Assembly (NCBI GenBank): GCA_963705305.1
Contig: OY970067.1
Span: 1,344,001 to 1,408,000 of the forward strand
Length of the DNA stretch: 64,000 nt
Direction: 5' to 3'
Source: an uncultured Methylomirabilota bacterium
Lineage (GTDB): Bacteria > Methylomirabilota > Methylomirabilia > Methylomirabilales > 2-02-FULL-66-22
Shown: positions 1-30,920 of the stretch, in pieces
Numbering within the stretch: position 1 is the stretch's first letter
Layout of the letters: every line of letters starts with the position of its first letter
Notes under the pieces: generated by a model
Told to the model about the DNA's origin: nothing
What the model saw: the letters and a program-made list of their open reading frames with translations, nothing else
Database searches by the model: none
Made by a program: the position numbers and the translations under genes

Positions 1-172
1 GATCACGATGCAAAGCGGGAGTGCCAGGAGCATCACAAGCGGCACGCTCCCCTCCATCCTCGGCTTCCCGGACGGGCTGCAGCAGTGGTGCCTCCGCACT
101 CGCCGTGACGGCGATCGCAGCTGCCGCCCGCATCTCGAGTTCGACCGGCTGCTCTGGCACGACAGAGCGGGC

Positions 173-499
173 TCAGCGACTCATCCAGAGGCCCATGACA
201 GCTCCGGCGATCCCGAGGAACAGGCCCACGGACACCCGCACAACCCACTCCATCGCGACGGCCTCGGCCACCGTCAATCCGAGCTTCCGGTGGGTCCAGG
301 CCCCCGCCTACATGAGACCGCTTTCGCCCTCCACCCCCTGTGTCCGTCGCAGCCACCAGCTCCGGGGGCAGAAGCAATAGTCGGCCAATTCGTTGGCGCC
401 CAAATCGGGGCGGTCCCCCCGCGGCGGTGGGATCCACGCCCCCCGCTTCTGCTGTCGCCAGCGTCACAGCGCCCCGCCTTTTGGTCCTTTGGATGTCAT
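173..499 (-). pseudogene. N-terminal half of a Cas4-like nuclease with C-terminal TM helix; two in-frame stops
   Basis: Manual translation from ATG 499: MTSKGPKGGAL*RWRQQKRGAWIPPPRGDRPDLGANELADYCFCPRSWWLRRTQGVEGESGLM*AGAWTHRKLG...VVRVSVGLFLGIAGAVMGLWMSR*. Contains a Cas4-type YxxCPR..W motif and G-x3-H. Start overlaps the upstream stop (ATGA). Absent from the ORF track. Confidence 0.65.
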
Positions 500-1099
500 C
501 CGCCCAACGCCTCATCGCAGACGTGGCGTAGCGCGCACCGCTGACATCTGGCCGGCGAGTGGTGGTCCGCGATGGAGATCCTTGTTGATTGCCAGGGCCC
601 GGCGCATCCGCTGGGCGGTCGCGAAGACCCCCTCCCGAATCTCCGGCGTGTTCTGAATGTGCACCTCACCGCGGGGAACCAGGGCCCCGCGTTCATCGAC
701 GTACCGAATCCAGCCCTCGGGGGGCGTCTGCCTCACCCGGCTGTCGCCCTGGCAGAGGACCAGAGCCGTGGCGAGCTGGAGGATGTGGCTCGGCCGGACC
801 TTCCCGGGCTCGAACCCCTGTCCTGCGGCCTTGTACTCGACCGGAAGCACGGCCCGAGTCGCGATGTGCTGCAGGAGCAAATCCACCTTTTCCGTGAGGC
901 TCCATTCATTGTCCCGGAGCAGGATGGCCCCGCGGCTGTCCATTCGGGCCTCCTGACCCAAGTCAGCCGAGAACACCCGGTAGCCTTTCGGGGTGTTGGC
1001 CTCGATCCCTGACCGCCTGCGACGCCAGACCGACAGGACCGGGAATCCGGTCAGAGCCAGGAAGAGGAGCGAGAGGGCTGCGAGCGTGCCTGCCTCCAC
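496..1099 (-). pseudogene. C-terminal half of a Cas4-like PD-(D/E)xK nuclease with N-terminal TM anchor; frameshift near 568
   Basis: N-terminal hydrophobic helix followed by RRRR; KVD...PVEYK...SHILQL nuclease motifs. The Cys triad HHSPARCQRCALRHVCDEAL lies in the adjacent frame (ORF 496..696). Confidence 0.7.
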
Positions 1100-1606
1100 T
1101 AACGGGGAAGCATACTCCGCCGCTTATGGAGAGGGCGATCCGCGACGGGGGGCTCTCTCAGGGGCAGTCGCCAACCCCATCAGAGAGAGGGGGGGCGCGA
1201 CCGGACCCCAATTCTCTCAACCCGCGCGTGCAGCGAAGAGGTGATGGCGCGCCACGCCATCGGACTCGCTCGGGTCAACGAGCCGCCGTACGCGGCGCAG
1301 GCGAGAAGGTGGTGAATGAGTTGTTCCCAGGGCAAGTATGGGGCTGTGCATCGGGGGACCAGGGGACTGGATCTGGCGGGGGTCAAGCTGTTTCGCAGGT
1401 GGGCCGCGGAAGCCACGGATAGCTCTATCAACTCCAGGTACCCTTATCATGGGATGGTCAACATCTATGGGTCCCGGATGAGCGTCCCGGCCGCGCTAGT
1501 GATCGGGCAGGCCACTTGGTCGGCGATCCGGCAGCGGGCGCGAAGCGATCGGGCCAGGGCGTTCCGTTCGATCTGGTTAGCGACTGTCTTCAAGACCGAA
1601 CGGCGC

Positions 1607-2767
1607 TTAGGCGGGATGTGAAGTAGGCGGCTCAGGTGCGGGGCCAGGGGATTCCGACTTCCCGCCGCCCTCGGGTGTTCCGCCGGTTGAGCCGGCCTCG
1701 GCGCCCCGCCGGAGATCGTCTCGGGTGAAGTGGACGTAACGGTCACTCGAGCGCCGGGAGCTGTGGCGAAGGAGGCCGGAGATCACCACGAGGTTCACGG
1801 CGTTGCGGAGGCGCTTGATCGCGAAATCGTGGCGCAGATCGTGCTGGCGCAGGTCCTTGATGTTCGCGGCGAGGCAAACGTCGTGGAAGACATGCGTGGC
1901 GTAGTCGACGGTCAGCGGGCGGCCGTCCGGCCAGCAGAACACCCAGTCGGAGCTGCGCGAGAGAGCCCCAAGAATCGCGACGGCCTTCTTGCTGAGGACC
2001 AGGTACTGCTTCTTGCCCGCCTTGGTTTCGGGCAGCTCAGCCAAGCGATCGCGCCAGAGAATCTTCGGCCACGTCAAGCCGGTCGCCTCTCCTGCCCGCG
2101 CACCGGTCTCGCCAAGGAACTCGAAGTATGGGTGGAGAACGGGAGGCTCGGTGGGGATTCCGGCCCAGAAGGCCTTCGCCTCCTCGGGGGTCATCTCTCG
2201 CGCGCGCTCGTTGTTCTCGGTCAGCAGCTCGACGGTGGCGAAGGGGCTGTGCAGGATCTTCCGTGCCTCCAGTGCGCGGTTCAGCACGGCCTTCAGGTCC
2301 TGCAAGAACCGATTGATACTCGCCGGCTTCCGCTTGCGTTTCCGCTTTTCGGTACGTGGGCCAACGGCCAGGTCGAGTTTGAGCTGCTCAATCTTGCTGG
2401 CCGGGATGTCCGTCGCCTCGATGTCGCCGAGCTTCTCAAGCACCTCGTCCAGCCTGCGCTCGATCACGTCGGCGGTCTTGTCGCCAGAGGCTTTCTTGGC
2501 GGTCATGTGCTCATTGATCAGCTGCTTCAGATGGACCGGCGGGAGGAATTTCTCTGGGAATCGCTGGCGGAGGACCTTCTCCGCCTTCTTGGCATCCCGA
2601 AACTCGACCGCCTGACTCTTCGTGCCGATGAGGGGACGATGGCGATTGCGGTCGCAGTCGTAGTACTCCACACCCCAATAACCCGGCTCCCGATTCGGAC
2701 CTACGCCCGGACCGGTGGGATCGGGTTTGAAGAAGAGGCCGCGGTCTTTCCCGCTCTTCCGTGCCAT
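1607..2767 (-). CDS. Tyrosine recombinase / phage-type integrase
   Basis: TGARAGE, TKAGK, HDLRH, LLRHS and RY catalytic motifs; KPASINR..LKA core-binding region; 386 aa. Confidence 0.92.
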   Translation of the reverse strand: MARKSGKDRGLFFKPDPTGPGVGPNREPGYWGVEYYDCDRNRHRPLIGTKSQAVEFRDAKKAEKVLRQRFPEKFLPPVHLKQLINEHMTAKKASGDKTADVIERRLDEVLEKLGDIEATDIPASKIEQLKLDLAVGPRTEKRKRKRKPASINRFLQDLKAVLNRALEARKILHSPFATVELLTENNERAREMTPEEAKAFWAGIPTEPPVLHPYFEFLGETGARAGEATGLTWPKILWRDRLAELPETKAGKKQYLVLSKKAVAILGALSRSSDWVFCWPDGRPLTVDYATHVFHDVCLAANIKDLRQHDLRHDFAIKRLRNAVNLVVISGLLRHSSRRSSDRYVHFTRDDLRRGAEAGSTGGTPEGGGKSESPGPAPEPPTSHPA

Positions 2768-2800
2768 GAGAGGTCTCGGACTGGATACCTGGTGATTGAG

Positions 2801-3073
2801 TTACGGCAGCGCTGTGTCGCGCGAAATCTGCGCGATGCGTTCACGATGGCGAGCGAGGTAGCGCTCCAGATCGATCCGGCGAAAGATGACACACCGGCCA
2901 ACCCGGATCACCGGAATGCGGTGCTTGGCTCGCCAGCGACGGTCTTCTAGCGTTCGTACCGAGACGCCGAGCAAATAGGCCGCATCCACGACGCGCAGCG
3001 ACTCGCGTAACGTCGGCTCTCTTGGATCGCTCGCCGCCCAAACTGGATCGCTGGCGCTTCCGAGGCCGCCCAT
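2801..3073 (-). CDS. Excisionase-like HTH_17 DNA-binding protein
   Basis: LRVVDAAYLLGVSVRTL...IPVIRVGRCVIFRRIDLE; directly upstream of the integrase. Start uncertain. Confidence 0.8.
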   Translation of the reverse strand: MGGLGSASDPVWAASDPREPTLRESLRVVDAAYLLGVSVRTLEDRRWRAKHRIPVIRVGRCVIFRRIDLERYLARHRERIAQISRDTALP

Positions 3074-3368
3074 CTGTGCTCTCCACGCTTGATCACTGCC
3101 GTGATCGAAGCTGGCACGAGCGTATGGGGCCCCTGGATTCAAACAAGGACACATTTCTGTTGGGCAGGCCGAAATCAGTCCGGCGGTCACTCTTCTTGGC
3201 CCCGACCGGACCAAGTCGCTTGGAACAAGAGCTTCATCTCGCTGCCGGCACGCGGCTCAAACGGGGCAGGGAGCAATTCAATTCCGTGATTGAGATGTGA
3301 TGGGCCGAGCTGCAGCAGGTGCGACACGGAAGGCGGGGGGCTACGTCGGGGGTCTGGGAACCGGTCCC

Positions 3369-3420
3369 TTTTGAGACAGAATCGCCATCGCTGTATTTCG
3401 GGGGCTTACGTGTCTCAAAA
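3369..3420. repeat. 10-bp perfect inverted repeat, candidate resolvase res subsite
   Basis: TTTTGAGACA (3369-3378) and TGTCTCAAAA (3411-3420) at the start of the resolvase. Confidence 0.5.
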
Positions 3421-3711
3421 TCCAGTCGCAAATCCAGCAAGACGAATTGGGTACGCCCGTGTCTCCACCGATGATCAAGATCCAGCCCTTCAAGTCGACG
3501 CCCTGCGCGGGGCGGGATGCACCGAGATCTTTGAGGATAAGATTTCAGGGGTGATCCGCAACCGTCCCGGGCTCGAGCGCGCCCTCGCTGCGGTGGAGCC
3601 CGGCGAAACTCTTGTCGTTTGGAAGCTCGACCGCCTTGGCCGGTCGCTGAGCGACTTGATCGACATCATCACAACGATAGGGAACTCCGGCTGCCATTTC
3701 CGCTCCCTCTC
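3410..3711 (+). pseudogene. Truncated serine resolvase/invertase (catalytic domain only)
   Basis: IGYARVSTDDQ...RPGL...LVVWKLDRLGRSL; similarity ends after FRSLS, and the E-helix and HTH are missing. Confidence 0.85.
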
Positions 3712-4396
3712 TTGGCGTCTCCAGGGCAACCCTATACCGGGCGTTGGCGCGACTTCCCGACTGAGAGCCCGGATGGCCGATGGCCGGGTGATTGGCGAGC
3801 GGACTTCTCGCTCGCGCTCAAGCACGGGAGGCCGCGATGCAGCCCGTTCAGTTGATTCGCACCGGGGAGACGCTGGTCCTCCATCAGACGGCACGGCGCA
3901 GTAGGACCGCCTCGTTTTCGAGGCGCAACTCCTTCTCGAACCGCAAGGCCGCCTTGTCGGGCGAGCAGGCCACGGCGCACTACCTGCGGGCACTCCACGG
4001 CATCGTCGAGCAGCAGGCGAGCGAGGTCCATGCGGCCGGACGCGGGGACAGAGGTGATGAACTGACGCAGTTTACCAACCTCCACACTCGCCGCACAAGC
4101 TTCGCATCCCGAGACTCGCCGTGATGCCGACGTGACTGCAATTCCCGCTCACTGCAATAGCTTGCGCTGACTCCTGCGGCTCTCGTGGGCAAGCGGCCGT
4201 GCCTCCGGGGAGACAGAGCAGCGCGAGGCTTGACGCTCAGTCTCGCCAGCCGTCAGCTTCTTCGCGGCGACCTCGGCCTTGACTTCGATCAGAGCAAGAG
4301 ATAGCCTTCGTTAGCATTCCACCGCTCGCACCTCCGCCTGCCCAGGCCCTCGGGCCTTTCATACGTTATGCAAACCTGACTGAGGGGGTGGGGCTC

Positions 4397-5176
4397 ATGA
4401 GCCGCCAAATCCTTCTTGAGCCACAGCAGGATCAGCTCTTCCGCGACTTGGTGGAAGCGGAACGCCGGGTGCCGCGCGAGCGGCGAGAACCGTTCTATGT
4501 CTTGAGAGTAAACATACCCACCGGCGTTCTCTTGATGCACGCGGGGTGGCAGGATCCCAACCGAGCGGTATTCGAAGGCGACATCGACACGCTCGCCCAG
4601 CGTGGGCTGATAGCAATCATGCAACGAGGGAACACCCCCTCGTTCTACGTCACGCCAGAGGGCTTCAACTATTATACCGAACTGATGGCGGCGATGGGCG
4701 AGCCGATGGAACGTCTCCAGAAGGTGACGCTCGACTATCTGAGCAACCCAGGGTTTCAATTGCGTTACCCGGCCGCCTTCGTAAAATGGGCCAAAGCGGA
4801 AGAGCTGCTGTGGGGCAGCGACAGTGCGGAAGAGTACACGACCATCGGCCACTTGCTGCGCGAGGCAATGCAAGAATTCGCGACGGAGCTGGTTGACCGC
4901 TTCCAACCACCGAATGTCGAGCAGGACAAGGCGAAGACAATCAAGCGAATCCGAGCGGTGATTGAAGCGAGGAGACGGAGCGAAGGCGTAGCGAAATTCC
5001 TTGAAGCACTCGTCTCCTACTGGGGAGCGGTAAGTGACCTCATCCAGCGACAAGAGCACGGCGGGCAGAAGGAAGGCGAGGCGCTCGGTTGGCCCGACGC
5101 CCGGCGAGCCGTGTTTCAGGTCGCGATAATTATGCTTGAGGTAAACAGCGCGCTGCTGAACGAGACAAAATCGTAA
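4397..5176 (+). CDS. Putative wHTH + HEPN/Abi_C-like protein
   Basis: N-terminal LAQRGLI...FYVTPEG wHTH-like segment; helical C-terminus with LREAMQEF and LIQRQEHG...DARRAV. Visibly lower GC than the core. Confidence 0.5.
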   Translation: MSRQILLEPQQDQLFRDLVEAERRVPRERREPFYVLRVNIPTGVLLMHAGWQDPNRAVFEGDIDTLAQRGLIAIMQRGNTPSFYVTPEGFNYYTELMAAMGEPMERLQKVTLDYLSNPGFQLRYPAAFVKWAKAEELLWGSDSAEEYTTIGHLLREAMQEFATELVDRFQPPNVEQDKAKTIKRIRAVIEARRRSEGVAKFLEALVSYWGAVSDLIQRQEHGGQKEGEALGWPDARRAVFQVAIIMLEVNSALLNETKS

Positions 5177-5225
5177 GTCGGGCTCGCGTTGGCAGTAAGT
5201 CGCTTGACGGCCCGTGGAGTACAAC

Positions 5226-6365
5226 ATGGCCGATGAATTCGAAGAGATCGCGCACTCCGGAGGAAAGATAAGCTTCACAATTCACACGGACGAAGAAGGC
5301 CGCACCACATATCAGATCAGCTTAACTGGCAGTCGGCCTGTGCCCATGACGCTGATGGCAGTCTACGCCTTGCCTCAAGGCGTGCCGGTCGAGACGATAC
5401 GCCTCGGCGGAATTGGGCAGCCGTGGAACCCGCCGCCCTTTCCTGGGTGCTTTGCCGTCCTCATCGCTTCCGACACGGAAGGGCAATTCGGGCACGTTTG
5501 CCCTGCCTGCAAAGGCTACTGGCGGAGTGGGCCGTTTCCTGGTCTGTGCCCATACTGTGCTTCACGCGGCAAGGCACACCAATTCATTTCGCTGGCTCAA
5601 CTTCGCTATGTCCGTCAGTACTGTACCGTCCTCAGCGACGCCCTTGCTGCCGCCGGCAACAGTGAAGTGGTGATAGATATGGATGCCGTCGCGGATGCTG
5701 TGGGCAAAGAAGGCGAAAAGCCGGCGTTCTACGTATCGGAGCAAAGCCAACAACGCAAATTCGATTGCCGGGCGTGCGGTGAATTCAACGATATTCTGGG
5801 TCGTTACGGCTACTGCTCGTCATGTGGGACGCGGAACGATCTGGCAGACTTTGAAGATCAGACCGCACGGAGCGTTCGTGAGCGAATAAACGCCGGGCAA
5901 GCACCTGAAGATTGCGTTAGAGATGCAGTCTCAGCCTTCGACTCCTTCATGGCCCAAATCGCTAATCAGTTGATAGAACTCGTGCCGATGACAGAACGTC
6001 GCAAGGAGCGGCTCTCCAGACACCGATTTCAGAACCTCGAAGAGGTACGGGAGACTTTCAGGGGTTGGTTTGACATTGACCCGTGCGCGGGGATGAGCGA
6101 GGAGGAGCGCAAGTTCGTAGCCTTGCTGTTTCATCGCCGGCATGTGTACGAGCATAAGGGTGGCGAGGTCGATCAGAAGTACCTCGACGACACCGGCGAC
6201 ACCACGGTACAGCTAAAGCAGCGGTTACACGAAACCCAGAGGGATGCGCACAGATTGGTCGGCCTCTTGGTCAAGATGGCCCGGAACGTTCACGCTACCT
6301 TCCACGAGATGTTCCCACCGATCTCTGAACCAATCGAGGATCACGCTCGGCGTCACCGTCGCTAA
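5226..6365 (+). CDS. Zinc-ribbon + HEPN domain protein
   Basis: Four CxxC motifs (CPAC, CPYC, CRAC, CSSC); C-terminal RRHVYEHKGGEVDQKY Rx4H HEPN motif. Confidence 0.65.
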   Translation: MADEFEEIAHSGGKISFTIHTDEEGRTTYQISLTGSRPVPMTLMAVYALPQGVPVETIRLGGIGQPWNPPPFPGCFAVLIASDTEGQFGHVCPACKGYWRSGPFPGLCPYCASRGKAHQFISLAQLRYVRQYCTVLSDALAAAGNSEVVIDMDAVADAVGKEGEKPAFYVSEQSQQRKFDCRACGEFNDILGRYGYCSSCGTRNDLADFEDQTARSVRERINAGQAPEDCVRDAVSAFDSFMAQIANQLIELVPMTERRKERLSRHRFQNLEEVRETFRGWFDIDPCAGMSEEERKFVALLFHRRHVYEHKGGEVDQKYLDDTGDTTVQLKQRLHETQRDAHRLVGLLVKMARNVHATFHEMFPPISEPIEDHARRHRR

Positions 6366-6952
6366 CCCCCGTAGCCCCGGCTTACTTCCCCACGCACCAC
6401 ACACCGGCCCTTTGCCTTCATGCGCCTTTCGTAGAACGTCTCCCCCGGCAAATCGGGATTGATCTACTGGCAGGATAGGGTTTCACAATGCGGGCCGTAG
6501 GAGTGCCTGGGGAGCGGCGTCAGTTGCGTGTGTGTCCTGGGCTCTTTACATTTGGGGTTCACGATCGCGGCGAGCCGGCTGTCGGGATGGCAGCGGACTC
6601 CAGGTCCGCGTTCTGAGCCAGGAAGTGTCGCCAGCCGTCGGTCCGGTCGGCTGCATGGGCGCGTTGACCTCACTCAGAGTTCGCCGCGGCCGTATTGGAG
6701 GACACACCATCATCGGCCTGGTGATTCATTGCAGTGCCTGGCTCCTTACCAGGAGTTCGCCTGCCAACGCTCGCGCTCGGGAGAGAGAACACCAGGAGCC
6801 AATACTATTTTAGGTGCTCCTAAACTTAGTGGCGGTTCGCTACAGAATTTGGCCGTATTTCATCGTACTGGACCGTACCGGTCCCCAAATACTAAGGCCA
6901 GCGCAACTCCTTGTCGCGCGGGCCTTTTCGTCGAAAAACCGTATCAAATCTG

Positions 6953-7027
6953 TGGCTCCCCGGGTAGGACTCGAACCTACAACCTAGCGGTTAACAGCCG
7001 CTCGCTCCACCATTGAGCTACCGGGGA
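6953..7027 (-). tRNA. tRNA-Asn (GTT)
   Basis: Cloverleaf TCCCCGG...CTGTTAA...GTTCGAGTCC...CCGGGGAGCCA. Confidence 0.97.
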
Positions 7028-7030
7028 ATA

Positions 7031-7381
7031 TTATCTTGTCTCGACCTGATCTCGCGGGGCCTGCTCCAAAACTTTCTTTAACCACTCGCGGCCGCGGCCC
7101 GACTTTAAGTATTTCTCGCGCCCCATTGCCTCCCGCCTCGACGGAAGGCGTTCAGCATGAACGAGGAGCCAGGGACCCGGGCTTCGTTTCGTAAATACGC
7201 TCCGATTCTTCTCCGGGTCATTGTGCTGCCTGAGGCGCCCCTCCAAGTTGTCCGTCTGCCCTACGTACAGCCTTCCGCTTGCTTGGCTGCGGATGACGTA
7301 GACCCAAAACCTCCCCGGTTCGCTGCGCCATTCACTGGGCTTCGGCAGATTGCTCCTCATCCGCCGCACTCGGCTCGTCAT
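7031..7381 (-). CDS. Small GIY-YIG nuclease (YhbQ/SLX1-like)
   Basis: WVYVI...LYVGQT.NL..RL.QHN...FTK...PW.L...EA..RE..LKSG.GR. Start uncertain. Confidence 0.9.
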   Translation of the reverse strand: MTSRVRRMRSNLPKPSEWRSEPGRFWVYVIRSQASGRLYVGQTDNLEGRLRQHNDPEKNRSVFTKRSPGPWLLVHAERLPSRREAMGREKYLKSGRGREWLKKVLEQAPRDQVETR

Positions 7382-7395
7382 TGAGCTACCGGGGA
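7311..7395 (-). ncRNA. tRNA-Asn-like element (acceptor stem and D arm only)
   Basis: 18-bp identity with the tRNA-Asn 5' end (7379-7396 vs 7011-7028); ends CCGGGGAG like the real tRNA; no T-loop, anticodon loop or CCA. Confidence 0.55.
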
Positions 7396-7415
7396 AAGCT
7401 GGGATGGCGCCGCGT

Positions 7416-7444
7416 ACTATACCAACAGTTCGTCCGTGCCGCAA
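7416..7444 (-). promoter_or_regulatory. Sigma70-type promoter for the tRNA-like/GIY-YIG/tRNA-Asn unit
   Basis: TTGCGG-17 bp-TATAGT on the minus strand. Confidence 0.6.
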
Positions 7445-7467
7445 GCCGGCGCTACGGGACGGGACGG

Positions 7468-8061
7468 CTAGGTCGTCATTTTCTTCCGGATGTCACCGAG
7501 GACCAGCTTGGCGCCCGCCTTCAGCGTCTCGAAGACGCCGACGCCCTTGGTGGCGCAGGCCTCGAAGGCCGGCACGCCCCGCGCGTTCAGGGCCGAGTCA
7601 AGGTCGCTCACGGAGACGATGTTGGGCAGGTCGCGCTTGTTGTACTGAAACACCAGGGGGAGATCCGACAGCTTCTGACTCTGCTCGGCCAGGTTCCCCT
7701 CCAGGTTCTCCATGCTCTCGACGTTCGCCTCCAGCCGCTCCAGTTGGGAGTCGGCCACGAAGATCACGCCGTCCACGCCGCGAAGGATGAGTTTCCGGCT
7801 GGCGTCGTAGAAGACCTGCCCCGGAACCGTGTAGAGGTGAAAGCGCGTCTTGAAGCCCCGGATGGTTCCCAGTTCCAGCGGGAGGAAGTCAAAGAAGAGC
7901 GTCCGTTCCGTCTCGGTGGCCAAGGAGATCAGCTTCCCCTTGGTGGCGGGATCCACCTTGGCATGGATGAACTGCAGGTTCGTGGTCTTCCCGCAGAGTC
8001 CCGGGCCGTAATAGACCAGCTTGCAGTTGATCTCTCGGGCGGCGTAATTGACGAAGGACAC
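7468..8061 (-). CDS. mglA: MglA small GTPase
   Basis: [33 protein letters not shown] motifs. Confidence 0.95.
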
Positions 8062-8070
8062 GCTGGCGCC

Positions 8071-8577
8071 TCAGTTCGATAGCAGTTTGTCGATGTCGTC
8101 GTCGGTGATCTCGCCCAGGGCGGCCCGCATGGCCGCCTGCTGGGGGCTGGCGCCCCCGGCGGCTCGCCGGTCGATCTGGACGAGCACCTGCCCTATGTCA
8201 TCAATGGCCCGCCGGATGCGGAGGCGGACCAGCCCCATGGGAGCCCGCCGGTCGAAGACCACGACCAGGATCAGGCGCCGCTCCACCGCGGTGATGTGCA
8301 GCCGGTCGGCGTCGCCCTCCAGGGACAGGGCCTGGAATCCGCTGGCGCCCATCAGGTCGGCCAGGCTGCCCGTGGCCGCCATGCTGCCGGCGACCAGCGA
8401 GGCCAGCGCCGTGATGTCGATGCCCGCGGACTCACCGGCCGCGGCCACCAGCCGCCCGTGGCGGTCGGTGAGAAACACGGCACGGCTGCCGGACTCGGCG
8501 CACAGCCACTGCAGCGTGGCCGTCAGGCGCCGCTCGTCCTCCTCGAAGAGCACCAGGTCCGTGGGAGGCGTGCTCAC
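8071..8577 (-). CDS. mglB: MglB roadblock/LC7 GAP
   Basis: Roadblock fold, GLVRLR motif, C-terminal ITDDDIDKL; adjacent to mglA. Confidence 0.9.
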   Translation of the reverse strand: MSTPPTDLVLFEEDERRLTATLQWLCAESGSRAVFLTDRHGRLVAAAGESAGIDITALASLVAGSMAATGSLADLMGASGFQALSLEGDADRLHITAVERRLILVVVFDRRAPMGLVRLRIRRAIDDIGQVLVQIDRRAAGGASPQQAAMRAALGEITDDDIDKLLSN

Positions 8578-8588
8578 CGGGCCGCTCC

Positions 8589-9191
8589 TTATCCGATCTC
8601 CCGTCGCCCCTCGAGCGCCCGGGCCAGCGTCGCCTCGTCGGCGTACTCGAGATCGCCGCCCATGGGCAGCCCGCGCGCGATGCGGGTCACCTTCACCGGA
8701 AACGGCTTCAGCAGCCGCAGCAGATAGAGCGCGGTCGCCTCGCCTTCCACGTTGGGATTCGTGGCCAGGATGACTTCCCGGGCCTCGGCCTCCTCCAAAC
8801 GCGCCACCAGCTCGCGCGCCCGGATCTGCTCGGGCCCGCGGCCGTCCAGCGGCGAGAGCGATCCGCCGAGGACGTGGTAGAGGCCGCGGAACTCCCGGGT
8901 CTTCTCGATGGCCAGGAGGTCATTGACCTCCTCCACCACGCACAGCACCGCCGCCTCGCGGCGCGGGTCCAGGCAGATGCCGCATAGCTCCCCTTCGGCG
9001 ATATTGAAGCAGCGCCGGCAGGACTGCGTACGATCCTTCAGGCCCACCACCGCCTCGGCCAGCGCCACGGCGTCCTCCCGCGGCGCCTTGAGGAGGTGGA
9101 AGGCCAGCCGCTGGGCCGTCTTGGGTCCGATGCCGGGCAGCCGGACGAGCTGATCGATCAGCGAGCCAAGGGCAGCGGGCATCAGTGGCAT
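8589..9191 (-). CDS. recR: Recombination mediator RecR
   Basis: LPGIGPKTAQRLA, C4 zinc finger, Toprim ATNPNVEGEATA. Confidence 0.96.
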   Translation of the reverse strand: MPLMPAALGSLIDQLVRLPGIGPKTAQRLAFHLLKAPREDAVALAEAVVGLKDRTQSCRRCFNIAEGELCGICLDPRREAAVLCVVEEVNDLLAIEKTREFRGLYHVLGGSLSPLDGRGPEQIRARELVARLEEAEAREVILATNPNVEGEATALYLLRLLKPFPVKVTRIARGLPMGGDLEYADEATLARALEGRREIG

Positions 9192-9212
9192 GCAGCTCTC
9201 CCCACTTACTGA

Positions 9213-9385
9213 CAGGCTGCTGAAAAACTCATTCTCGGTCAGGCTGCTCAAAAGGGCCCAGGTGCAAGGCGGCGCGCGATGAGCCGAGTGAGGCGTACTT
9301 CCGGTACGCCGCAGCGAGTGCCCGAGCGCGCGGGGCACCCATCCGAAGGATGGGTCTCGGCAGATGGGCCTTTTTCAGCAGCCTG
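9213..9385. mobile_element. MITE-like element with CAGGCTGCTGAAAAA terminal inverted repeats
   Basis: IRs at 9213-9227 and 9371-9385, with a nested second left end at 9240-9260; abuts CTAG at the ybaB stop; no transposase. Confidence 0.7.
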
Positions 9386-9697
9386 CTAGAACAGTCCCGG
9401 AAGGCCAAGGCCTCCGGCCAGCCGCGACACGTCCTGGGCGAGCAGCTCGCGCGCCTTCCGCAGCGCGTCATTGGCCGCCGCGGTGACCAGGTCCTGGAGC
9501 ATTTCCAGGTCGTCCCCCCGTACGACCTCGGGGTCGATCTTCACCGAGAGCAATTCGCCTTTGCCGTTGGCCACCGCCGTGACCATCCCGCCGCCGGCGC
9601 TTCCTTCCACGGTTTTGCCCGCCGCCTCCGCCTGGATGCGATCCATCTCGGCCTTCATCTTCTGGGCCTGCTTCATGATCTCACCGAGGTCCTTCAT
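9386..9697 (-). CDS. ybaB: YbaB/EbfC nucleoid-associated protein
   Basis: MKQAQKM...GSAGGGMV...DLEMLQDLV.AA.NDA; between dnaX and recR. Confidence 0.95.
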   Translation of the reverse strand: MKDLGEIMKQAQKMKAEMDRIQAEAAGKTVEGSAGGGMVTAVANGKGELLSVKIDPEVVRGDDLEMLQDLVTAAANDALRKARELLAQDVSRLAGGLGLPGLF

Positions 9698-9706
9698 GCC
9701 CCCTCC

Positions 9707-11359
9707 TCACGCCCCGACTTCCCGAACGACCGTCCCCCCGAACAGGGCCAGCGCCTCGCGGACCAGCGGATGGTCCTGCGGGCGCGCCGACCTCTGCGAC
9801 GCCGCGGGGGCAGGGGCCACGAACCGGTACTCGATCCGAAGGCGCCGCCCGAAAGCCTGGGTCGCCGCCTCCCCGATGACGCGGCGGCTCTCCGCCTCCT
9901 CCAGCGTGTCCCGCACGTAGGCGTTGCCGTTGGGCACCTCCAGCGTCAGCCGGTCGGCGTCCAGCTCGGCGGCACGGACCTCGGTCAGGACGGAGGCCAG
10001 GCGCTTGCGTCCCCGCAGCTGCTCGACGGCGGCCGCCCAGCCCTGGTCCATGTCCGCCGGCCCGCCCGGCGCAAGCGGACGCGCCCCGCCCTCCGCCGCG
10101 CGCGGGGGCTGGGCCTCCGGGGCCGCCGGCGCCCGGCGCGGCTGCGCACCCGCCGCGGGCCCGAACAGCGGCAGCTCCGCCACGGCGGCGGCCGGCGCAG
10201 GCGCGGGGCCGCCGGACGGGCGACCGGCCAGCGCGGTGAGTCGATCCAGAATGTTCCCCAGGCTTTCCAGGTGCCGGATCTCCGTCAGGCGGATCAGGGC
10301 CATCTCCAGCGAGTACCGCGGCTGGGCGGCCCGGCGCATCTCCGCCTCCGCCTGCAGCAGGGTCTTGAACATGAGCTCCAGCTCCGGCAGCGTCGCCCCC
10401 TCGGCCTGGCGGCGGGCCGCCTCCAGCCCCACGCGTCCCCCTTCCAGCAGGTGCCCCGGTTCCGGGCACACCTTGAGGATCGCCAGGTCGCGCAGGTGCG
10501 CCGCCAGCTCCACCGCGAACTGGCGCAGGTCCTGCCCGCAGCCCACGAGGCGGTCCACCAGCCCCAGCGCCGCCGCCGCATCCCGGGCCAGGATCGCATC
10601 GGCCGCCTCCGTCAGCACCTCGGCCCGCACCAGCCCCAGGAGGTCGGCCACCTTTCCGGCCTCCAGTCGGCTCCCCAGGCAGGCGATGGCCTGATCCAAA
10701 AGGCTCTGGGCGTCGCGAAGGCTGCCGCCCGCCGCCCGGGCCAGGAGGGTCACGCTCCCCTCGTCGGCGTCGACCCCTTCGGCTTGCAGGATCTCGCGCA
10801 GGCGGCCGGTGATCTCGGCCACCCCCAGGAGGCGGAAATCGTGCCGCTGGCAGCGCGACTGGATGGTGGCGGGGATGCGGTGGGGCTCCGTCGTGGCCAG
10901 GATGAAGATCACGCGAGCCGGGGGCTCCTCCAGCGTCTTCAGCAGCGCGTTGAAGGAGCTGGTGGAGAGCATGTGGGCTTCGTCGATGATATAGACCTTG
11001 TGCCGGCCTCGCGAGGGGGCGTACTGGACCGTCTCCAGGAGATCGCGGGTCTTTTCCACCTGGGTGTTGGAGGCGGCGTCCACCTCGATGCAATCCAGGG
11101 ATCGTCCGGCAGCGATCTCTTTGCAGGCGGGGCAGACGCCGCAGGGGGAGGGCGTGGGCCCTTGGGCGCAGTTCAGCGCCTTGGCCACGATCCGCGCGGT
11201 CGTTGTCTTCCCGACGCCCCGGGCTCCGGCGAAGAGCAGGGCGTGGGCCATGCGATCGCCGGCCAGGGCGTTCTTGAGGGTGTCGGTGACATGGCGCTGG
11301 CCCACGACCTCGTTGAAGGTCTGCGGCCGCCAGCGTCGTGCGATGACTTGATATGCCAT
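9707..11359 (-). CDS. dnaX: DNA polymerase III gamma/tau
   Basis: YQVIARRWRPQTF, GARGVGKTT, DEAHML, SRC motifs. Confidence 0.97.
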   Translation of the reverse strand: MAYQVIARRWRPQTFNEVVGQRHVTDTLKNALAGDRMAHALLFAGARGVGKTTTARIVAKALNCAQGPTPSPCGVCPACKEIAAGRSLDCIEVDAASNTQVEKTRDLLETVQYAPSRGRHKVYIIDEAHMLSTSSFNALLKTLEEPPARVIFILATTEPHRIPATIQSRCQRHDFRLLGVAEITGRLREILQAEGVDADEGSVTLLARAAGGSLRDAQSLLDQAIACLGSRLEAGKVADLLGLVRAEVLTEAADAILARDAAAALGLVDRLVGCGQDLRQFAVELAAHLRDLAILKVCPEPGHLLEGGRVGLEAARRQAEGATLPELELMFKTLLQAEAEMRRAAQPRYSLEMALIRLTEIRHLESLGNILDRLTALAGRPSGGPAPAPAAAVAELPLFGPAAGAQPRRAPAAPEAQPPRAAEGGARPLAPGGPADMDQGWAAAVEQLRGRKRLASVLTEVRAAELDADRLTLEVPNGNAYVRDTLEEAESRRVIGEAATQAFGRRLRIEYRFVAPAPAASQRSARPQDHPLVREALALFGGTVVREVGA

Positions 11360-11412
11360 ATGCTTCCAGGGACCCCCGGAACGGGGGGGCGCCGGACGGC
11401 CCGGGCAGCTCC

Positions 11413-11509
11413 GATCGGGACCCCTCGCGGCACCGGCCGCTCGCTGTTTACCGTTGCTTCCTTCCGGACCTGGCGGGGTTCACAGGGCTACCTTGCGCGA
11501 GACCCGATC
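11413..11509 (-). ncRNA. ffs: Small SRP RNA (4.5S)
   Basis: GAACCCCGCCAGGTCCGGAAGGAAGCAACGG core in a long hairpin upstream of dnaX; ends approximate. Confidence 0.93.
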
Positions 11510-11620
11510 CTCATCGCTGCTCAAACCGCCCGGCGCCCGGGTGATCGGCGGCCCGGACCGCCGAAAGGCCTAACAGACTGCTCTGCCGGAAGGCGCGTCC
11601 GCCAAGCCCGAGGCAACGGC

Positions 11621-11710
11621 TGGCGGAGAGGCCGGGATTCGAACCCGGGGTGGAGTTTCCCCCACACACGCTCTCCAGGCGTGCTCCTTCAACCACTCGG
11701 ACACCTCTCC
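11621..11710 (-). tRNA. tRNA-Ser (GGA)
   Basis: Class II cloverleaf, anticodon loop CTGGAGA, CCA end. Confidence 0.96.
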
Positions 11711-11786
11711 GTGGCCCCCCGTCAGTCATGCGTTCTCCGGCGTCGCGGACCGCCCGCCCCCGGCAGGCGCCCTGCGGTCGACGGCG

Positions 11787-11877
11787 TGGCGGAGAGGGTG
11801 GGATTCGAACCCACGTGGGAGTTGCCCCCCAACCCGCTTTCGAGGCGGGCCCGTTACGACCACTTCGGTACCTCTCC
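11787..11877 (-). tRNA. tRNA-Ser (CGA)
   Basis: Class II cloverleaf, anticodon loop CTCGAAA, CCA end. Confidence 0.96.
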
Positions 11878-11913
11878 CCGACACCGGCGCTTGTTTGCGT
11901 TTGTGGGGCGTCG

Positions 11914-12519
11914 CTAGCCGGCGGGCACGCCCTGGATCAGGGTGACCCGGTACTTGGCGTGCTCGAACGGCTGCATATCCGGGAACTTGGCGAAGAGCCA
12001 TCCCCGGTAGATCTCCTTCTTGTCCTCGAAGACCGTCACCGCCACGGCGGGGTTGGTCGGCTCGTTCGAGGCCGAGGTGATCTCGTTGCTATCCACCCGA
12101 AGCGCCGGCAGGAAATCTCCGACCCGCACATGGAGGCTGCTCCCCGGAATGTCCAGCTCGCCCCCCAGCGGCACCGTGAAGATCCGGGGTGGCCCGCCCC
12201 CATCCTTCTCCTCCACCTGGAGCTTCACGGCCTTCCACTTGCCCCTGACCGACCCGGGGACCCGCACCGTCCGGCTGCTGCTCCCCACGGGGGGATGCCG
12301 CTGTTCCGACGCGCTCTCGCCCGGCATGCCGATGGGCGGATGGCCGGGGGGCAGCGTCGCCTGGGCCGACTCGCCCCCCGCGGCCGCGGGAGGCGGCGGA
12401 GGCGGGGCCACCACGGCGAAGTAGAGCGCCACCGCCGCCAGCGGGACGGCCACCGCCAGGCCGATGAGGATCAGCCTTCGCGTGGACGGCCTCGGCGTGC
12501 TCCCGTCTGTGGAATTCAT
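11914..12519 (-). CDS. Membrane-anchored DUF2155-like protein
   Basis: N-terminal TM helix, LPPGHPP linker, C-terminal GWLFAKFP..PFEH.KYRV.L. Confidence 0.7.
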   Translation of the reverse strand: MNSTDGSTPRPSTRRLILIGLAVAVPLAAVALYFAVVAPPPPPPAAAGGESAQATLPPGHPPIGMPGESASEQRHPPVGSSSRTVRVPGSVRGKWKAVKLQVEEKDGGGPPRIFTVPLGGELDIPGSSLHVRVGDFLPALRVDSNEITSASNEPTNPAVAVTVFEDKKEIYRGWLFAKFPDMQPFEHAKYRVTLIQGVPAG

Positions 12520-12631
12520 CGATCCTGCCCCGCAGCCAAATAGAAAAACCGGCCCTGCCCCGAGGGCTGCCGGCGGGCCCGTGGCGTGGCCGACAGGCGC
12601 CGTTCTCTTTCTCTGCTCGTTCTGTCTGGGT

Positions 12632-12723
12632 TGGCGGAGAGGCCGGGATTCGAACCCGGGGGCCAGTTTTACCCGACCAACCGCTTAGCAGGCGGTTGCC
12701 TTCGGCCGCTCGGCCACCTCTCC
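12632..12723 (-). tRNA. tRNA-Ser (GCT)
   Basis: Class II cloverleaf, anticodon loop CTGCTAA, CCA end. Confidence 0.96.
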
Positions 12724-12816
12724 AGCATGCTCCGTCTATCTGCCGGTCGCGCCCCTCAATCGGGCCCCCGTTTTGCGCGGGGCCGCGTTGTCGCGCGACA
12801 CCCCATCGCGCGTCGC

Positions 12817-12902
12817 TGGCGGAGGGGGTAGGATTCGAACCCACGGACCTTGCGGTCTTCCCGTTTCAAGCGGGATGCCTTCAACCACTCGGCCACCCCT
12901 CC
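12817..12902 (-). tRNA. tRNA-Ser (TGA)
   Basis: Class II cloverleaf, anticodon loop CTTGAAA, CCA end. Confidence 0.95.
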
Positions 12903-13028
12903 CCTGCGGGATCCTGCCGCCATCCCTCCGGCGAGCGTCTCGGTGCCGCGCCGCGACGTCTCCAGGCCCCCGCCGGCCCTCTTATCATAGGAAACCCCGC
13001 GCACAAAGGGAAGCGGAAATGTGGGCAG

Positions 13029-14315
13029 CTAGGGTTTGGGGATGCGCTCCAGCCCGTCCATGTACGGCCGTAGCGCCTCCGGGATGCGTACGCTGCCGTC
13101 CGCCTCCTGGAAGTTCTCCAGGATGGCCAGCCAGGTGCGGCCCACCGCCACCCCCGACCCGTTCAGCGTGTGGGCGTATTCCACCGGGGCCTTGGGGGCC
13201 GGCCGAAAGCGGATGTTGGCCCGCCGGGCCTGAAAGTCTTCGCAGTTGCTCACGGAGGAGATCTCCCGGTAGCCTCCCCCGCCCGGTTGGCCGGGCAGCC
13301 ACACCTCAAGATCGTAGGTCTTAGCGGAGGCAAACCCCATGTCCCCGGTACACAGCACCACCACCCGGTAGGGAAGCCCCAGCCCCTGCAGCACCGCTTC
13401 GGCGTCGCGCGTCATCTGCTCCAGCGCCTCGCACGATCGGTTGGGCTCGGTGAACTTCACCAGCTCCACCTTGTTGAACTGGTGCTGTCGAACGAGCCCC
13501 CGCGTGTCCTTCCCATAGGACCCGGCCTCCCGCCGGAAGCAGGGCGTAAACGCCACGTAGGATCGGGGCAGGCTGCCAGGAGGCAGGATCTCGTCCCGGT
13601 GGAGGTTGGTGAGCGGGACCTCGGCGGTCGGGATCATGTAGAGGGACTCGTCCTTGGTCTTGAACAGCTCCTCCTCGAACTTGGGCAGCTGGCCGGCCCC
13701 CGTCATGGCGGCCGCATTGACCAAAAGCGGGGGGAGCACCTCCGTGTAGCCGTGCTCCCGCACGTGCAGGTCCAGCATGAAGTTGATGAGCGCCCGCTCC
13801 AGGCGGGCCCCCGGACCGATGAGAACGGCAAAGCGCGCCTGGGCCATGCGCGTGGCGCGCTCGAAGTCCAGCAGTCCCAGCGCCTCACCGATCTCCCAGT
13901 GGGGCCTGGGGGGAAAATCGAACTTTCGGGGGGATCCCCAGCGCCGGACCTCCGTGTTCCCGCTGCCGTCCGGGGCCACCGGCACCGAGGCGTGGGGGAG
14001 ATTCGGCACGCCCAGGAGGAAGCGCTTGACCTGCTCCTCGCAGCGTCGCACGGCCTCGTCCAGGCTCTTGATCCGCTCTCCCGCCTCCCGCATCTCGGCG
14101 ATGAGATCCTGGGCGTCCTGCCCGGCCCGCTTGCGCCGGCCGACCTCCTCCGACACGGCGTTGCGCCGATGCTTGAGCTGCTCCACCTCGGCCAGGAGAC
14201 GGCGGCGGCCCGCCTCGGCCTCCAGGAATTCGCCGAAGTCCAGTCGCAGCCCGCGACTTTGCAGGCGCTGCTGAACCGCCTCCAGGTTGTCCCGAACGAA
14301 TTTTGCGTCGAGCAT
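13029..14315 (-). CDS. serS: Seryl-tRNA synthetase
   Basis: [35 protein letters not shown] motifs. Confidence 0.98.
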
Positions 14316-14333
14316 CGTCGCGTCGCCCTGCCG

Positions 14334-16835
14334 TTAGCCCTGGGGCTCCTCGGCGTCCGACCCGCTTCCGTTCGCCTCGCCCTCGGCCTCTTCGGCCACC
14401 AGGCTGGTGACCGCCGCCACCCGGTCGTTGGCCTCCAGGCCCTGCAGGCGCACCCCCTGGGTGGCCCGCCCGATCACGCTGATCTCGCGGACATTCAGCC
14501 GGTTCACCTTTCCTTCCTGCGAGATCATCATGGCCTGGTCCTGCTCCTGGACCTGGAGAATGCTGACCACCGGCCCGTTCTTGTCCGTCACCCGCACGTT
14601 GATGATGCCCTTGCCGCCCCGGCCCTGGAGGCGGTATTCTTCCAGGGCGGTGCGCTTCCCGTAGCCGTGCTCGTTCACCGTCAGGATGGTGGTGCCGGGC
14701 CGGACCACCTCGGCGGCCACGACCTTGTCCTCGTCCTCCAGGGCGATGCCGATGACTCCCCGCCCCGTGCGCCCGATGGACCGCACCTCCTCCTCGCCGA
14801 ACCGGATGGCCATACCCTGCCGCGTGGCCAGGAAGATCTCGTCTCCCTCCGAGGTCAGCCGGACGGCGATCAGCTCGTCCCCCTCGTCCAGCGTCAGCGC
14901 GATGATGCCGCCGGCGCGCGGATTGGCGTAGGCGCTGAGCTCCGTCTTCTTCACGACCCCCCCGCGCGTGGCCATGAAGAGGTACTTGTCCACCTCGAAC
15001 TGGCGGATCGGGATCATGGCCGTGACGTTCTCGCCCGGCTGCACCTGCAGGAAGTTGACCAGCGCCTTGCCCTTGGCGGCCCGGCCCACCTGCGGCACCT
15101 CGTGCACTTTCAGCCAGTGCACCCGGCCCAGGTTCGTGAAGAGGAGCATGTAGCTGTGCGTGGTCGCCACGAAGAGGTACTCCACGTAGTCCTCTTCCTT
15201 GGTGGCCATCCCGGTGGTGCCCTTGCCGCCCCGCCGCTGCGACCGGTAGATCGTCAGCGGGCTGCGCTTGATGTAGCCGCCGTGCGTGACGGTGACCACC
15301 ATCTCCTCGTCGGCCACCATGTCCTCGAAGGAGATCTCGGCCGTCTCCTCCAGGATCTGGGTGCGGCGGGGGTCGCCGTACTGGTCCTTCAGGGCCGTCA
15401 GCTCGTCCCGCACAATCCCCCGGACCAAGGCCTCGTTGCCGAGGATCGCCTCCAGGCGGGCGATCAGCTGGATGGTCTCCTGGTACTCGTCCTGGATCTT
15501 CTGGCGCTCCAGCTGGGTGAGGCGCTGCAGGCGGAGGTCCAGGACAGCCTGCGCCTGGATCGTGGTCATGCCGAACTGCTGCACCAGGCCCTCGCGGGCC
15601 TCGTCCACCGAGCGGGACCGCCGGATGAGCTGGATGACCGCGTCCAGGTGGTCCAGGGCGATCCGGTAGCCCTCCAGAAGATGGGCCCGCGCCTCGGCCT
15701 GGCGAAGCTCGAAGCGGGTCCGGCGGACCACCACTGTCTTCCGGTGGTCGATGAAGTGTCCGACCACCTGCTTGAGATCCAGCACCCGGGGCTGGTTGTC
15801 CACCAGGGCCAGCATGATCACCCCGAAGGTGGACTGCATCGCCGTGTGCTTGTAGAGCGTGTTCAGGATGGGGGGGGCCGGCTCGTCCTTCTTGAGCTCC
15901 AGCACGATGCGCATGCCCTCCCGGTCGGACTCGTCGCGCAGATCCGAGACGCCGTCGATGCGCTTCTCGCGGATGAGCTCCGCGATCCGCTCCACCAGCC
16001 TGGCCTTGTTCACCTGGTAGGGCAGCTCGGTCACCACGATGCTGTCCCGCCCGCCGCGCCCCTTCTCGATGACCGCCTTGGCGCGCACCTGGATGAGTCC
16101 CCGCCCGGTCCGGTAGGCATCCAGGATCCCCTGCCGCCCGTGGATGTAGCCGGCGGTGGGGAAGTCCGGCCCGGGCAGGTGGTGCATCAGCTCGTCGATG
16201 GTGATATCGCCATTCTCCAGCTGGGCGATGACGGCGTCCACCACCTCTCCCAGGTTGTGGGGCGGGATGTTGGTGGCCATACCCACGGCGATGCCCGCCG
16301 AGCCGTTGATCAGCAGGTTCGGCAGGACCGCGGGCAGCACCAGCGGCTCCTGCGTGGACTCGTCGTAGTTGGGGCTGAAGTCCACCGTCTCCTTGTCGAT
16401 GTCCCGCAGCATCTCCTGGGACAGGCGGGCCAGGCGGACCTCCGTGTAGCGCATGGCCGCGGGCGCATCCCCGTCCACGGAGCCGAAGTTCCCCTGCCCG
16501 TCGATCAGGGGGTAGCGCATGGAGAAGTCCTGCACCAGGCGCACGATGGTGTCGTAGACGGCGCTGTCGCCGTGCGGGTGGTATTTCCCCAGGACGTCGC
16601 CCACGACGCGGGCCGACTTGCGGTAGGGGCGGTTGAAGCTCAGCCCCATCTCGTCCATGGAGTAGAGCACGCGGCGGTGCACCGGCTTCAGGCCGTCCCG
16701 CACGTCCGGCAGGGCCCGGCCGATGATGACGCTCATGGCGTAGTCCAGGTAGGACCGCCGCATCTCCTCGTGGATGTCGGTGGGGTGAACCTCGCCTACG
16801 CGCTGCTGGGCGATCCCGTCGTTCTGTTCGGGCAC
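14334..16835 (-). CDS. gyrA: DNA gyrase subunit A
   Basis: [14 protein letters not shown], GyrA-box QRRGGKG. Confidence 0.98.
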
Positions 16836-16911
16836 GACTCGTCCGTCCTCTCAGGCCGCCGGGCGGGCGGCTGCCGCTTGCCGCCGGCCGGCGCCCGGTC
16901 TGCGCGAGCCA

Positions 16912-19440
<2,529 letters not shown>

Positions 19441-30895: not shown

Positions 30896-30920
30896 CCGCA
30901 GATCCGTTCTGCGCCGCAAC

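Follow-up and report, generated by a model that had tools for sequence, protein, structure and literature searches.

Decayed remains of a three-gene module from conjugative elements that probably encodes a split, membrane-anchored Cas4-like nuclease

Cas4-family nucleases are known as soluble, single-chain enzymes of clustered regularly interspaced short palindromic repeat (CRISPR) adaptation, of repair and of phage recombination. The stretch analysed here, referred to throughout as the window, comprises 64,000 nucleotides from the genome of an uncultured Methylomirabilota bacterium (GenBank assembly GCA_963705305.1, contig OY970067.1, positions 1,344,001 to 1,408,000), and its first 1,099 bases raise a question: why should two parts of a Cas4-like nuclease lie in adjoining genes, in reverse order, each with a membrane helix of its own? 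The answer that we consider probable is that window 1-1099 is a decayed copy of a conserved three-gene module (genes A, B and C) of conjugative elements, in which A and B form a Cas4-like iron-sulfur (Fe-S) nuclease at the membrane. The familiar fold would here be cut into two membrane-anchored chains, encoded in reverse within a conjugative transfer region. The pseudogene in the window matters only as a pointer to an intact set at 3.2 Mb of the same genome.

Read on the minus strand, window 1-1200 contains gene A at 1099-496, which encodes a membrane helix, a PD-(D/E)xK core and, behind a +1 frameshift, a CxxCx5C Cys triad. Gene B follows at 499-173 with N-terminal Cas4 motifs and a C-terminal transmembrane helix, and its start codon (ATG, 499-497) overlaps the stop codon of gene A (ATGA). 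Both genes are seen as a first-pass annotation of this DNA had described them. Lesions were placed by DNA alignment with the two closest relatives, loci L007 and L016. The features are the following.

512-1099, minus strand: first frame of gene A (pseudogene), an open reading frame (ORF) of 195 amino acids with a GTG start; N-terminal membrane helix, then the D, ExK and QL-helix motifs
569-570, minus strand: frameshift in gene A, one extra base relative to L007 and L016
496-568, minus strand: C-terminal piece of gene A in the shifted frame, DHHSPARCQRCALRHVCDEALGG, with the Cys triad CxxCx5C; matches the C-termini of the A homologues P0001, P0002 and P0004
173-499, minus strand: gene B (pseudogene), with the Cas4 N-terminal Cys motif YCFCPRSWW, G-x3-H (GAWTH), a C-terminal membrane helix and its own stop codon at 175-173
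464-466, minus strand: in-frame TGA in gene B, CGA in L007 and L016
308-310, minus strand: in-frame TAG in gene B, CGG in L007 and L016, which implies two substitutions
1-57, minus strand: 5' part of gene C, starting at ATG 57 or GTG 45; two membrane helices, frame intact

The gene A ORF at 1099..512 opens with MEAGTLAALSLLFLALTGFPVLSVWRRRR, a hydrophobic helix followed by an arginine run (RRRR), and contains EKVDLL...PVEYK at the position of GKVDLL...VEYK in its relatives, together with HILQLATALVLC. CQRCALRHVC, the Cys triad, is read in a different frame, ORF 696..496, whose stop codon is the TGA at 498-496. Window A is 90% identical to the intact, 196-residue P0001; the ATG with which A starts in the relatives is ACG in the window (1087-1085), and the upstream GTG at 1099, common to the window and L007, may be the start instead. 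The frame of gene B reads MTSKGPKGGAL*RWRQQ...ANELADYCFCPRSWWLRR...GLM*AGAWTHRK...VGLFLGIAGAVMGLWMSR*, and in L016, where it begins at the same ATGA, this frame is uninterrupted. Window B matches positions 6-64 of TIGR00372 (E 1.4e-4, a weak match), the sole NCBIfam match among the window's A and B pieces; neither broken gene yielded a Pfam match. Gene C runs past the window, to a stop codon about 186-188 bases beyond its first base.

The same three genes are preserved intact elsewhere in this genome (G000), where tblastn located a paralogous set, A'-B'-C', at positions 3207510-3208673 with all three frames open. A' (P0006, 196 residues) is 73% identical to window A, B' (92 residues) carries YCARSWW, GTQAH and the terminal helix, and C' (77 residues) has two hydrophobic helices. 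Across intact sets, A has about 196 residues, B about 92-108 and C 77-170. Protein searches returned 27 A homologues of 143-198 residues, mostly 193-198, named at source as Cas4 (RecB family) or as PD-(D/E)XK nuclease of Candidatus Methylomirabilota; the B profile returned 143 small B-like proteins, many of about 79 residues and from Chloroflexota. In the ESM Atlas, B matched unnamed clusters, mostly from Chloroflexota. For gene C, Pfam, NCBIfam and PADLOC gave no meaningful family match, and the ESM Atlas gave no usable lead (best score 0.85).

Conservation of the arrangement was assessed in related loci pooled from one genome scan, one metagenome scan and one phylum search. Of the distinct loci, 17 leave room of 300 bp or more, and in 16 of these B directly follows A; 13 of the B genes are intact, and those of L007, L018 and the window are broken. 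C follows B in all 14 loci with room. The coupling of A and B in other genomes, which the first-pass annotation had left to be looked for, is found. The ratio of nonsynonymous to synonymous substitution rates (dN/dS) is 0.17-0.61 for B and 0.06-0.66 for C. Values below 1 in both genes, together with intact copies of the same arrangement in many records, indicate purifying selection and refute the reading of the window as a rearranged, broken ordinary cas4 or as chance open frames in G+C-rich DNA. That reading drew on the many spurious ORFs that high G+C yields and on the broken state of the window copy, and we hold its probability to be next to nil. It also conflicts with the lack of Cas1 (PF01867), which was found nowhere in the 98.9% complete, single-contig genome by a search whose control was positive in 7 of 14 reference genomes. 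As no CRISPR-like array occurs in window 1-20000 either, the absence of a CRISPR context stated earlier stands; no cas gene was found among the neighbours scanned.

How the two genes relate to Cas4 is indicated by the parts of the family models that each of them covers. On TIGR00372 (cas4, 180 positions), residues 52-190 of A' align with positions 56-178 (E 1.1e-8, 35.2 bits) and residues 21-62 of B' with positions 5-47 (E 1e-3, 18.9 bits). Nine PADLOC models of Cas4 and Cas1 fusions are likewise covered by A' and B' in a complementary, non-overlapping way. PF12705 (PDDEXK_1, 247 positions) is matched at E<=0.1 by 23 of 26 A sequences (best 6.5e-10) and by 7 of 11 B sequences, the latter at positions 2-50, the range that B' itself covers; PF01930 is matched by only 4 of the 26 A sequences (best E 0.02). 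The N-terminal piece of Cas4 (B) is encoded downstream of the C-terminal piece (A), and the earlier description of a split Cas4 with swapped order is borne out by the non-overlapping coverage of the TIGR00372, PADLOC and PF12705 models.

Structural comparisons point to the same family. Among sequences in the PDB, the best match of the A profile was the Cas4-Cas1 fusion 7mi4 (E 0.021), and the two best matches of the B profile were the Cas4 proteins 8d3l (residues 9-49) and 4r5q (E 0.13 and 0.17); these matches are weak (E 0.02-0.17), yet in them the Cys and G-x3-H residues are in register. Modelled with AlphaFold, A' has a mean predicted local distance difference test (pLDDT) score of 78.6, and the model is confident except for the Cys-triad tail, which is poorly modelled in A' alone (pLDDT <50 at residues 175-180 and 187-196). 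Foldseek searches with this model returned 7mi4, MGME1, 8d3l, 4ic1 (SSO0001), AdnAB and Dna2 nuclease domains as top matches. In all 26 A sequences (alignment A1), D69, E84, K86, C181, C184 and C190 are invariant, and in B (alignment A2) the RxDRPD stretch, C28, W32, W33, G50, H54 and G58 are. By fold and motifs, as judged from sequence, the pair is a Cas4-family nuclease.

The heterodimer anticipated by the first-pass annotation gains support from co-folding of A' residues 28-196 and B' residues 1-70 with a 4Fe-4S cluster. The interface score ipSAE was 0.79, 0.78 and 0.78, against 0.14 for the best of three controls. Among solved complexes, 116 of 157 reached this mark, and among mismatched pairs 2 of 215 did. 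The runs share at least 76% of contacts, with a partner pLDDT of at least 59. In the predicted complex, B Cys28 contacts A residues 173-175 and 180, beside C181, and A Cys184 and Cys190 lie in the interface. The model thereby supports binding of B to A, as a predicted contact that brings B Cys28 near the A triad.

The flanks of the membrane helices suggest where such an assembly would take place. A has 0-5 residues ahead of its helix and a basic stretch behind it, and B has a basic stretch ahead of its terminal helix and 0-4 residues behind it; by the positive-inside rule, applied to these basic flanks, the soluble parts of both proteins are predicted to be cytoplasmic. The cytoplasm is the site of Fe-S cluster assembly. 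Drawing on the motifs, the positive-inside rule and the co-fold, we propose that A and B would come together on the cytoplasmic side of the inner membrane and restore a single Cas4-like domain, to which B would supply one [4Fe-4S] ligand and probably the metal-binding histidine, and A the D/ExK motif and three ligands. If ligands are shared in this way, neither chain would be complete alone. We infer, with fair support, that A and B assemble into one Cas4-like Fe-S nuclease at the cytoplasmic membrane face. The G-x3-H helix of SSO0001 provides, with its histidine, one of the ligands of the metal (quoted in PMC13621843), so that B probably furnishes a portion of the active site in addition to a cluster ligand.

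Several observations weigh against this assembly. A' and B' both fall below the curated TIGR00372 cut-off (35.2 and 18.9 against 65 bits), and P0006 has no Pfam match at E 0.1. Two halves of a known fold may score well in co-folding because they resemble Cas4 structures already solved, and the co-fold used here relied on custom alignments and a riding ligand, unlike the calibration of the tool. B His54 and Gly50 (the 50-54 segment) are outside the confidently placed interface residues, so that the composite active site rests on conservation and on the equivalent histidine of SSO0001. The binding of Fe-S, the nuclease activity, the insertion into the membrane and the contact between A and B are predictions, and a solo Cas4 has been reported active even without its cluster. 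Further, A carries a fourth Cys (C112 of P0006, in the Q-helix) that is invariant in all 26 sequences of this branch. The locus L010 contains a full-length A homologue (P0022, L010:8001-8579) without B or C within 8 kb, and in L007, the closest relative, A is intact (90% identical), with a one-base deletion in the conserved Cys codon of B (L007:1018-1355). A may work alone, or the L010 and L007 copies may be decaying too.

The first of these options would make A self-sufficient, with Cys112 as the fourth cluster ligand and with B and C as unrelated small membrane proteins that travel along. The invariance of C112 and the occurrence of A without an intact B in L010 and L007 speak for it. However, V or L stands at the C112 position in wider A-type relatives, B matches only the N-terminal 45-50 positions of the Cas4 and PDDEXK_1 models, exactly the part that A lacks, and the Cys, Gly and His of B are invariant. 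The co-fold places B Cys28 beside the triad, and unsplit relatives hold the B-type motif in the same chain as the core, one protein (P0149) even fusing A and B. We therefore give a self-sufficient A a very slim chance, and return to the two-chain nuclease.

Those relatives came from a search of 1.84 billion representative proteins with the A profile, which gave 405 matches at E<=0.001 and 76 at E<=1e-10. The best 150 of the 405 matches, sorted by hydropathy and motifs, fell into these classes.

93 of 150: A-type, with an N-terminal helix, the core and the Cys triad, and no N-terminal Cys motif
28 of 150: unsplit, a single chain of 264-596 residues in which the N-terminal Y-x-Y-C-P-L-S-W-W motif is followed by membrane helices and these by the core
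10 of 150: multi-helix proteins outside the regular expression used, three of which have a variant N-terminal motif and would raise the unsplit total from 28 to 31
1 of 150: natural A-B fusion in swapped order (P0149, 315 residues)
1 of 150: canonical form without membrane helices
17 of 150: apparent fragments

Unsplit forms have 2 to about 8 inserted helices, and among these relatives the membrane helices lie between the N-terminal Cys/G-x3-H helix and the core, either within one chain or at the ends of two. The helices of B and A correspond to the first and the last helix of the insertion in unsplit forms, and the split therefore looks like a fission in an outer loop. Under this scheme, unsplit relatives with 2-8 inserted membrane helices would have undergone fission at this same point of the fold, and the gene order would later have been swapped in the branch considered here. 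P0149, a metagenome representative, runs in order through a helix, the core, the Cys triad, a 50-residue linker, the Cys motif of the B type and a last helix. Its layout suggests a natural A-B fusion, which makes it a circular permutation of the unsplit form, and it could also be an artefact of gene calling or sequencing.

A second A-type profile (A5) recognised 4761 proteins among 8000 candidates scored, many of them annotated 'CRISPR-associated protein Cas4'. In a quick, midpoint-rooted tree of 133 cores, from which 17 of the 150 proteins were left out as fragments or unclassifiable and in which most branches are weak, the integrative and conjugative element (ICE) branch, including P0149, forms one group of 12 with a Shimodaira-Hasegawa-like approximate likelihood ratio test (SH-aLRT) support of 98. 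It lies within a weak group (support 54) that otherwise contains split A-type forms only, and 32 of the 35 unsplit forms fall in another group. As far as these sequences indicate, the split pair belongs, as one branch, to an extensive clade of Cas4-like nucleases that are embedded in the membrane, in either unsplit or split form.

A distant pair was found by tblastn of plasmids, which gave a single locus, in Paludisphaera. On the Paludisphaera borealis plasmid PALBO2 (L028, record 30615-31396) the order is B then A, with an ATGA overlap and no C; the B-type gene is annotated 'hypothetical protein' and the A-type gene 'PD-(D/E)XK nuclease family protein'. In the phylum of the window, the A profile matched 5 of 251 genomes, with a clear copy in three (G000, G015 and G018); the other two matches were a degenerate fragment (L025) and an ordinary cas1-cas2-cas4 locus (L026). 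Such a patchy distribution of the module is as expected for mobile DNA. A scan of genome contigs gave one related locus, and the B profile gave none in viral contigs. Two metagenome matches (L020 and L021, 41-42% identical over 46 residues) were not recovered by the A, B or C profiles.

The surroundings of the intact copies are those of conjugative elements. The paralogue A'-B'-C' is placed between a type IV coupling protein gene on one side and TraG_N, TraH and a DsbC-like gene on the other, both flanks being on the opposite strand, with a methyltransferase gene and one unassigned ORF between the coupling protein gene and the set. In Pfam searches, a coupling protein occurs upstream in five loci (L006, L008, L010, L015 and L029) and TraG_N with TraH downstream in three (L001, L008 and L029), where C ends beside the 3' end of the TraG_N gene. 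By NCBIfam, the coupling protein is related to TraD of SXT, and the other proteins to TraG and TraH of the F type. The coupling protein has a large HD-domain protein encoded beside it. In L010, the genes downstream of A include a Dam-like methyltransferase (recognised by eye), a ParB_N protein and, about 3.5 kb further, a recombination directionality factor.

What the module does in this setting can be approached by analogy. The module takes up the place beside traG that in F, SXT/R391, IncP, IncW and IncN elements belongs to exclusion genes, which there adjoin the VirB6/TraG gene (excerpted text of PMC11493245), and in SNIPE, Zorya and Kiwa membrane localisation lets nucleases hit entering DNA only (excerpted text of PMC12904381). 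Membrane tethering would similarly limit the nuclease to DNA that crosses the membrane, whether through the mating channel or as injected phage DNA. By this analogy, an exclusion, anti-competitor or defence role against DNA crossing the membrane is a tentative possibility, which we would not put at even odds. More specifically, A, B and perhaps C might constitute a Fe-S nuclease of several obligate chains, assembled nowhere but in the membrane and with an active site drawn from two polypeptides. Conjugative elements would use it as a gate beside the mating channel that destroys incoming DNA of competing elements or phages, a form of exclusion by degradation not known to have been described; this we consider doubtful.

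Three points count against any such role. The functional reading rests on gene position only. C has no similarity to known exclusion proteins, and none of A, B and C matched an exclusion family in Pfam, NCBIfam or PADLOC; exclusion proteins diverge fast. The PALBO2 pair adjoins a 960-residue DNA methyltransferase, without C or TraG, on a plasmid that carries umuDC and a MobF relaxase.

The module could instead act in transfer or establishment, as a conjugation accessory: a membrane-held nuclease that processes the transferred strand, trims ends or aids establishment of the incoming DNA. Cas4-family enzymes act on single-stranded DNA and DNA ends, the module lies within the transfer cluster, beside the coupling protein and TraG/TraH, and in L010 the A homologue is near the methyltransferase, ParB_N and recombination directionality factor genes. 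This is countered by the patchiness of the family, with its three clear copies in 251 phylum genomes, and by the presence of the pair on PALBO2, a plasmid typed non-mobilizable, without TraG or C. An accessory role in conjugation is, on balance, unlikely.

The window copy itself lies outside such a transfer cluster. The coupling protein, TraG and TraH each occur once in the window's genome, at 3.20-3.21 Mb, so the window's element is without transfer machinery. As in L013, a tyrosine integrase stands upstream in place of the coupling protein:

1607-2767, minus strand: tyrosine integrase (PF00589, E 1.2e-20) of the remnant that carries A-B-C

Further genes of this remnant lie just outside the window start (L030, G000:C1:1329001-1344000) and encode SSB, RadC, a 401-residue UvrD-like helicase, a DUF6094 methyltransferase and an SNF2-like helicase; the SSB gene is truncated, matching only positions 1-46 of a 104-position model. 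At the DNA level the remnant genes are 65-77% identical to the far end (3.26-3.30 Mb) of the intact 3.2 Mb element, and their orientation with respect to A is inverted. Judging by these alignments, what surrounds the window copy is a remnant that has been rearranged and is decaying, in keeping with the three lesions of the copy. At about 570-569, gene A reads CAT CGC G GAC in the window and CAT CAG GAC in the relatives, and at 466, within the TGA codon of gene B, a related contig of run X3 has G on the plus strand, giving CGA.

The first-pass annotation had described this copy as looking dead, and the frameshift and the two nonsense codons in the DNA alignment, in an element lacking transfer genes, support that view. 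The lesions rest on the assembly, since the public contigs from the same strain cover only 605-755 and 703-1193 and reach none of the three sites, a reservation that favours the opposite view, in which the copy is alive and the frameshift and stops are assembly errors or recoding. The frameshift is indeed a single extra base in a G/C-rich stretch, and gene C is intact. Such a view would, however, have to accommodate three independent lesions within 330 bases, one of them needing two substitutions (CGG to TAG), in an element devoid of any transfer genes and beside a truncated SSB gene, and the closest relative, L007, also has a broken B. The relatives show no recoding signal and have sense codons at the stop positions. 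A living window copy is accordingly very improbable in our estimate. Programmed frameshifting and stop read-through, considered as candidates, were ruled out by the sense codons of the relatives and the absence of a shift there.

Several other features were noted around the remnant. The integrase is followed, further into the window, by an excisionase-like HTH_17 ORF on the minus strand (2801-3214) and by an ORF on the plus strand (3290-3904) for a serine recombinase, whose Resolvase match covers the N-terminal domain only. A tRNA-Asn gene is located at 6953-7027, and G+C falls to 0.59-0.60 at 4-8 kb; the island may have inserted at this tRNA-Asn gene. Window 9209-9397 contains a repeat of about 100-190 bases with roughly a hundred genome copies at 66-99% identity, which has the look of a dispersed small repeat or a miniature inverted-repeat transposable element (MITE). 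At 11621-11877, a gap of 77 bases separates two tRNA-Ser genes, one with a GGA and one with a CGA anticodon, and further stretches about 77% identical are found near 12629-12723.

The intact paralogue, the conserved gene C, the conjugative-element setting and the membership in a large membrane-embedded family are absent from the first-pass annotation. If it is true that the two chains must meet for the Fe-S and catalytic sites to form, the pair would be a natural nuclease dependent on membrane assembly, and would offer an easy means of leaving the chromosome untouched while attacking only DNA in passage across the membrane. The pair would, in addition, provide a handle on a larger clade of thousands of proteins, mostly from Chloroflexota and archaea, that are automatically annotated as 'CRISPR-associated Cas4' or 'hypothetical protein'.

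Among known systems, the nearest is Cas4 itself (TIGR00372/PF01930; structures 4IC1, 4R5Q of Pcal_0546, 8D3L of type I-C and 7MI4), with which the pair shares the PD-(D/E)xK core, the Q-helix, the 1+3 Cys arrangement and G-x3-H. Unlike Cas4, it spreads the fold over two chains in reverse gene order with a membrane helix on each, and its four Cys are complete only across the two chains (C28 in B; C181, C184 and C190 in A). It also scores below the curated cut-off, has no CRISPR-cas linkage, and in this branch the Y of QhxxY is replaced. Solo Cas4-like nucleases of PF12705 borne by mobile genetic elements (Hudaiberdiev et al. 2017; main text of PMC5704561) are likewise Cas4-family genes outside CRISPR loci, and that text mentions a Cas4 clade tied to Burkholderiales conjugative plasmids. 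The words 'transmembrane', 'split' and 'permut' do not occur in it, supplements aside. A membrane-anchored or split Cas4 was not found in the literature covered, which included the accessible text of PMC5704561, PMC13621843, PMC10541130, PMC12904381 and PMC11493245, subscription journals and supplements aside.

Two other kinds of system resemble the module in placement or in principle. Known exclusion factors are, to our knowledge, not nucleases. Like the module, the genes for entry exclusion (F TraS, SXT/R391 Eex and IncC EexC; excerpted text of PMC11493245) adjoin traG/VirB6, here that of an F/SXT-like transfer system, and encode small inner-membrane proteins; no sequence similarity to them was found for A, B or C, and the window copy itself has no adjoining TraG. 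The membrane-localised anti-phage nucleases SNIPE and Zorya (ZorAB with ZorD; excerpted text of PMC12904381) share the idea of an inner-membrane nuclease that meets entering DNA only. They are unrelated proteins, however: only the Cas4 and DruK models of PADLOC were matched, and the pair has no evident domain for sensing or for binding the injection machinery.

The membrane-embedded Cas4-like proteins, whether unsplit or split in the order small then large, belong to the same clade and have their helices at the same point, between the G-x3-H helix and the core. In contrast to them, the module described here has the large half first, an attached membrane gene C and a place in a conjugative transfer cluster. 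The swapped gene order, the attached gene C and the conjugation context are what is new here.

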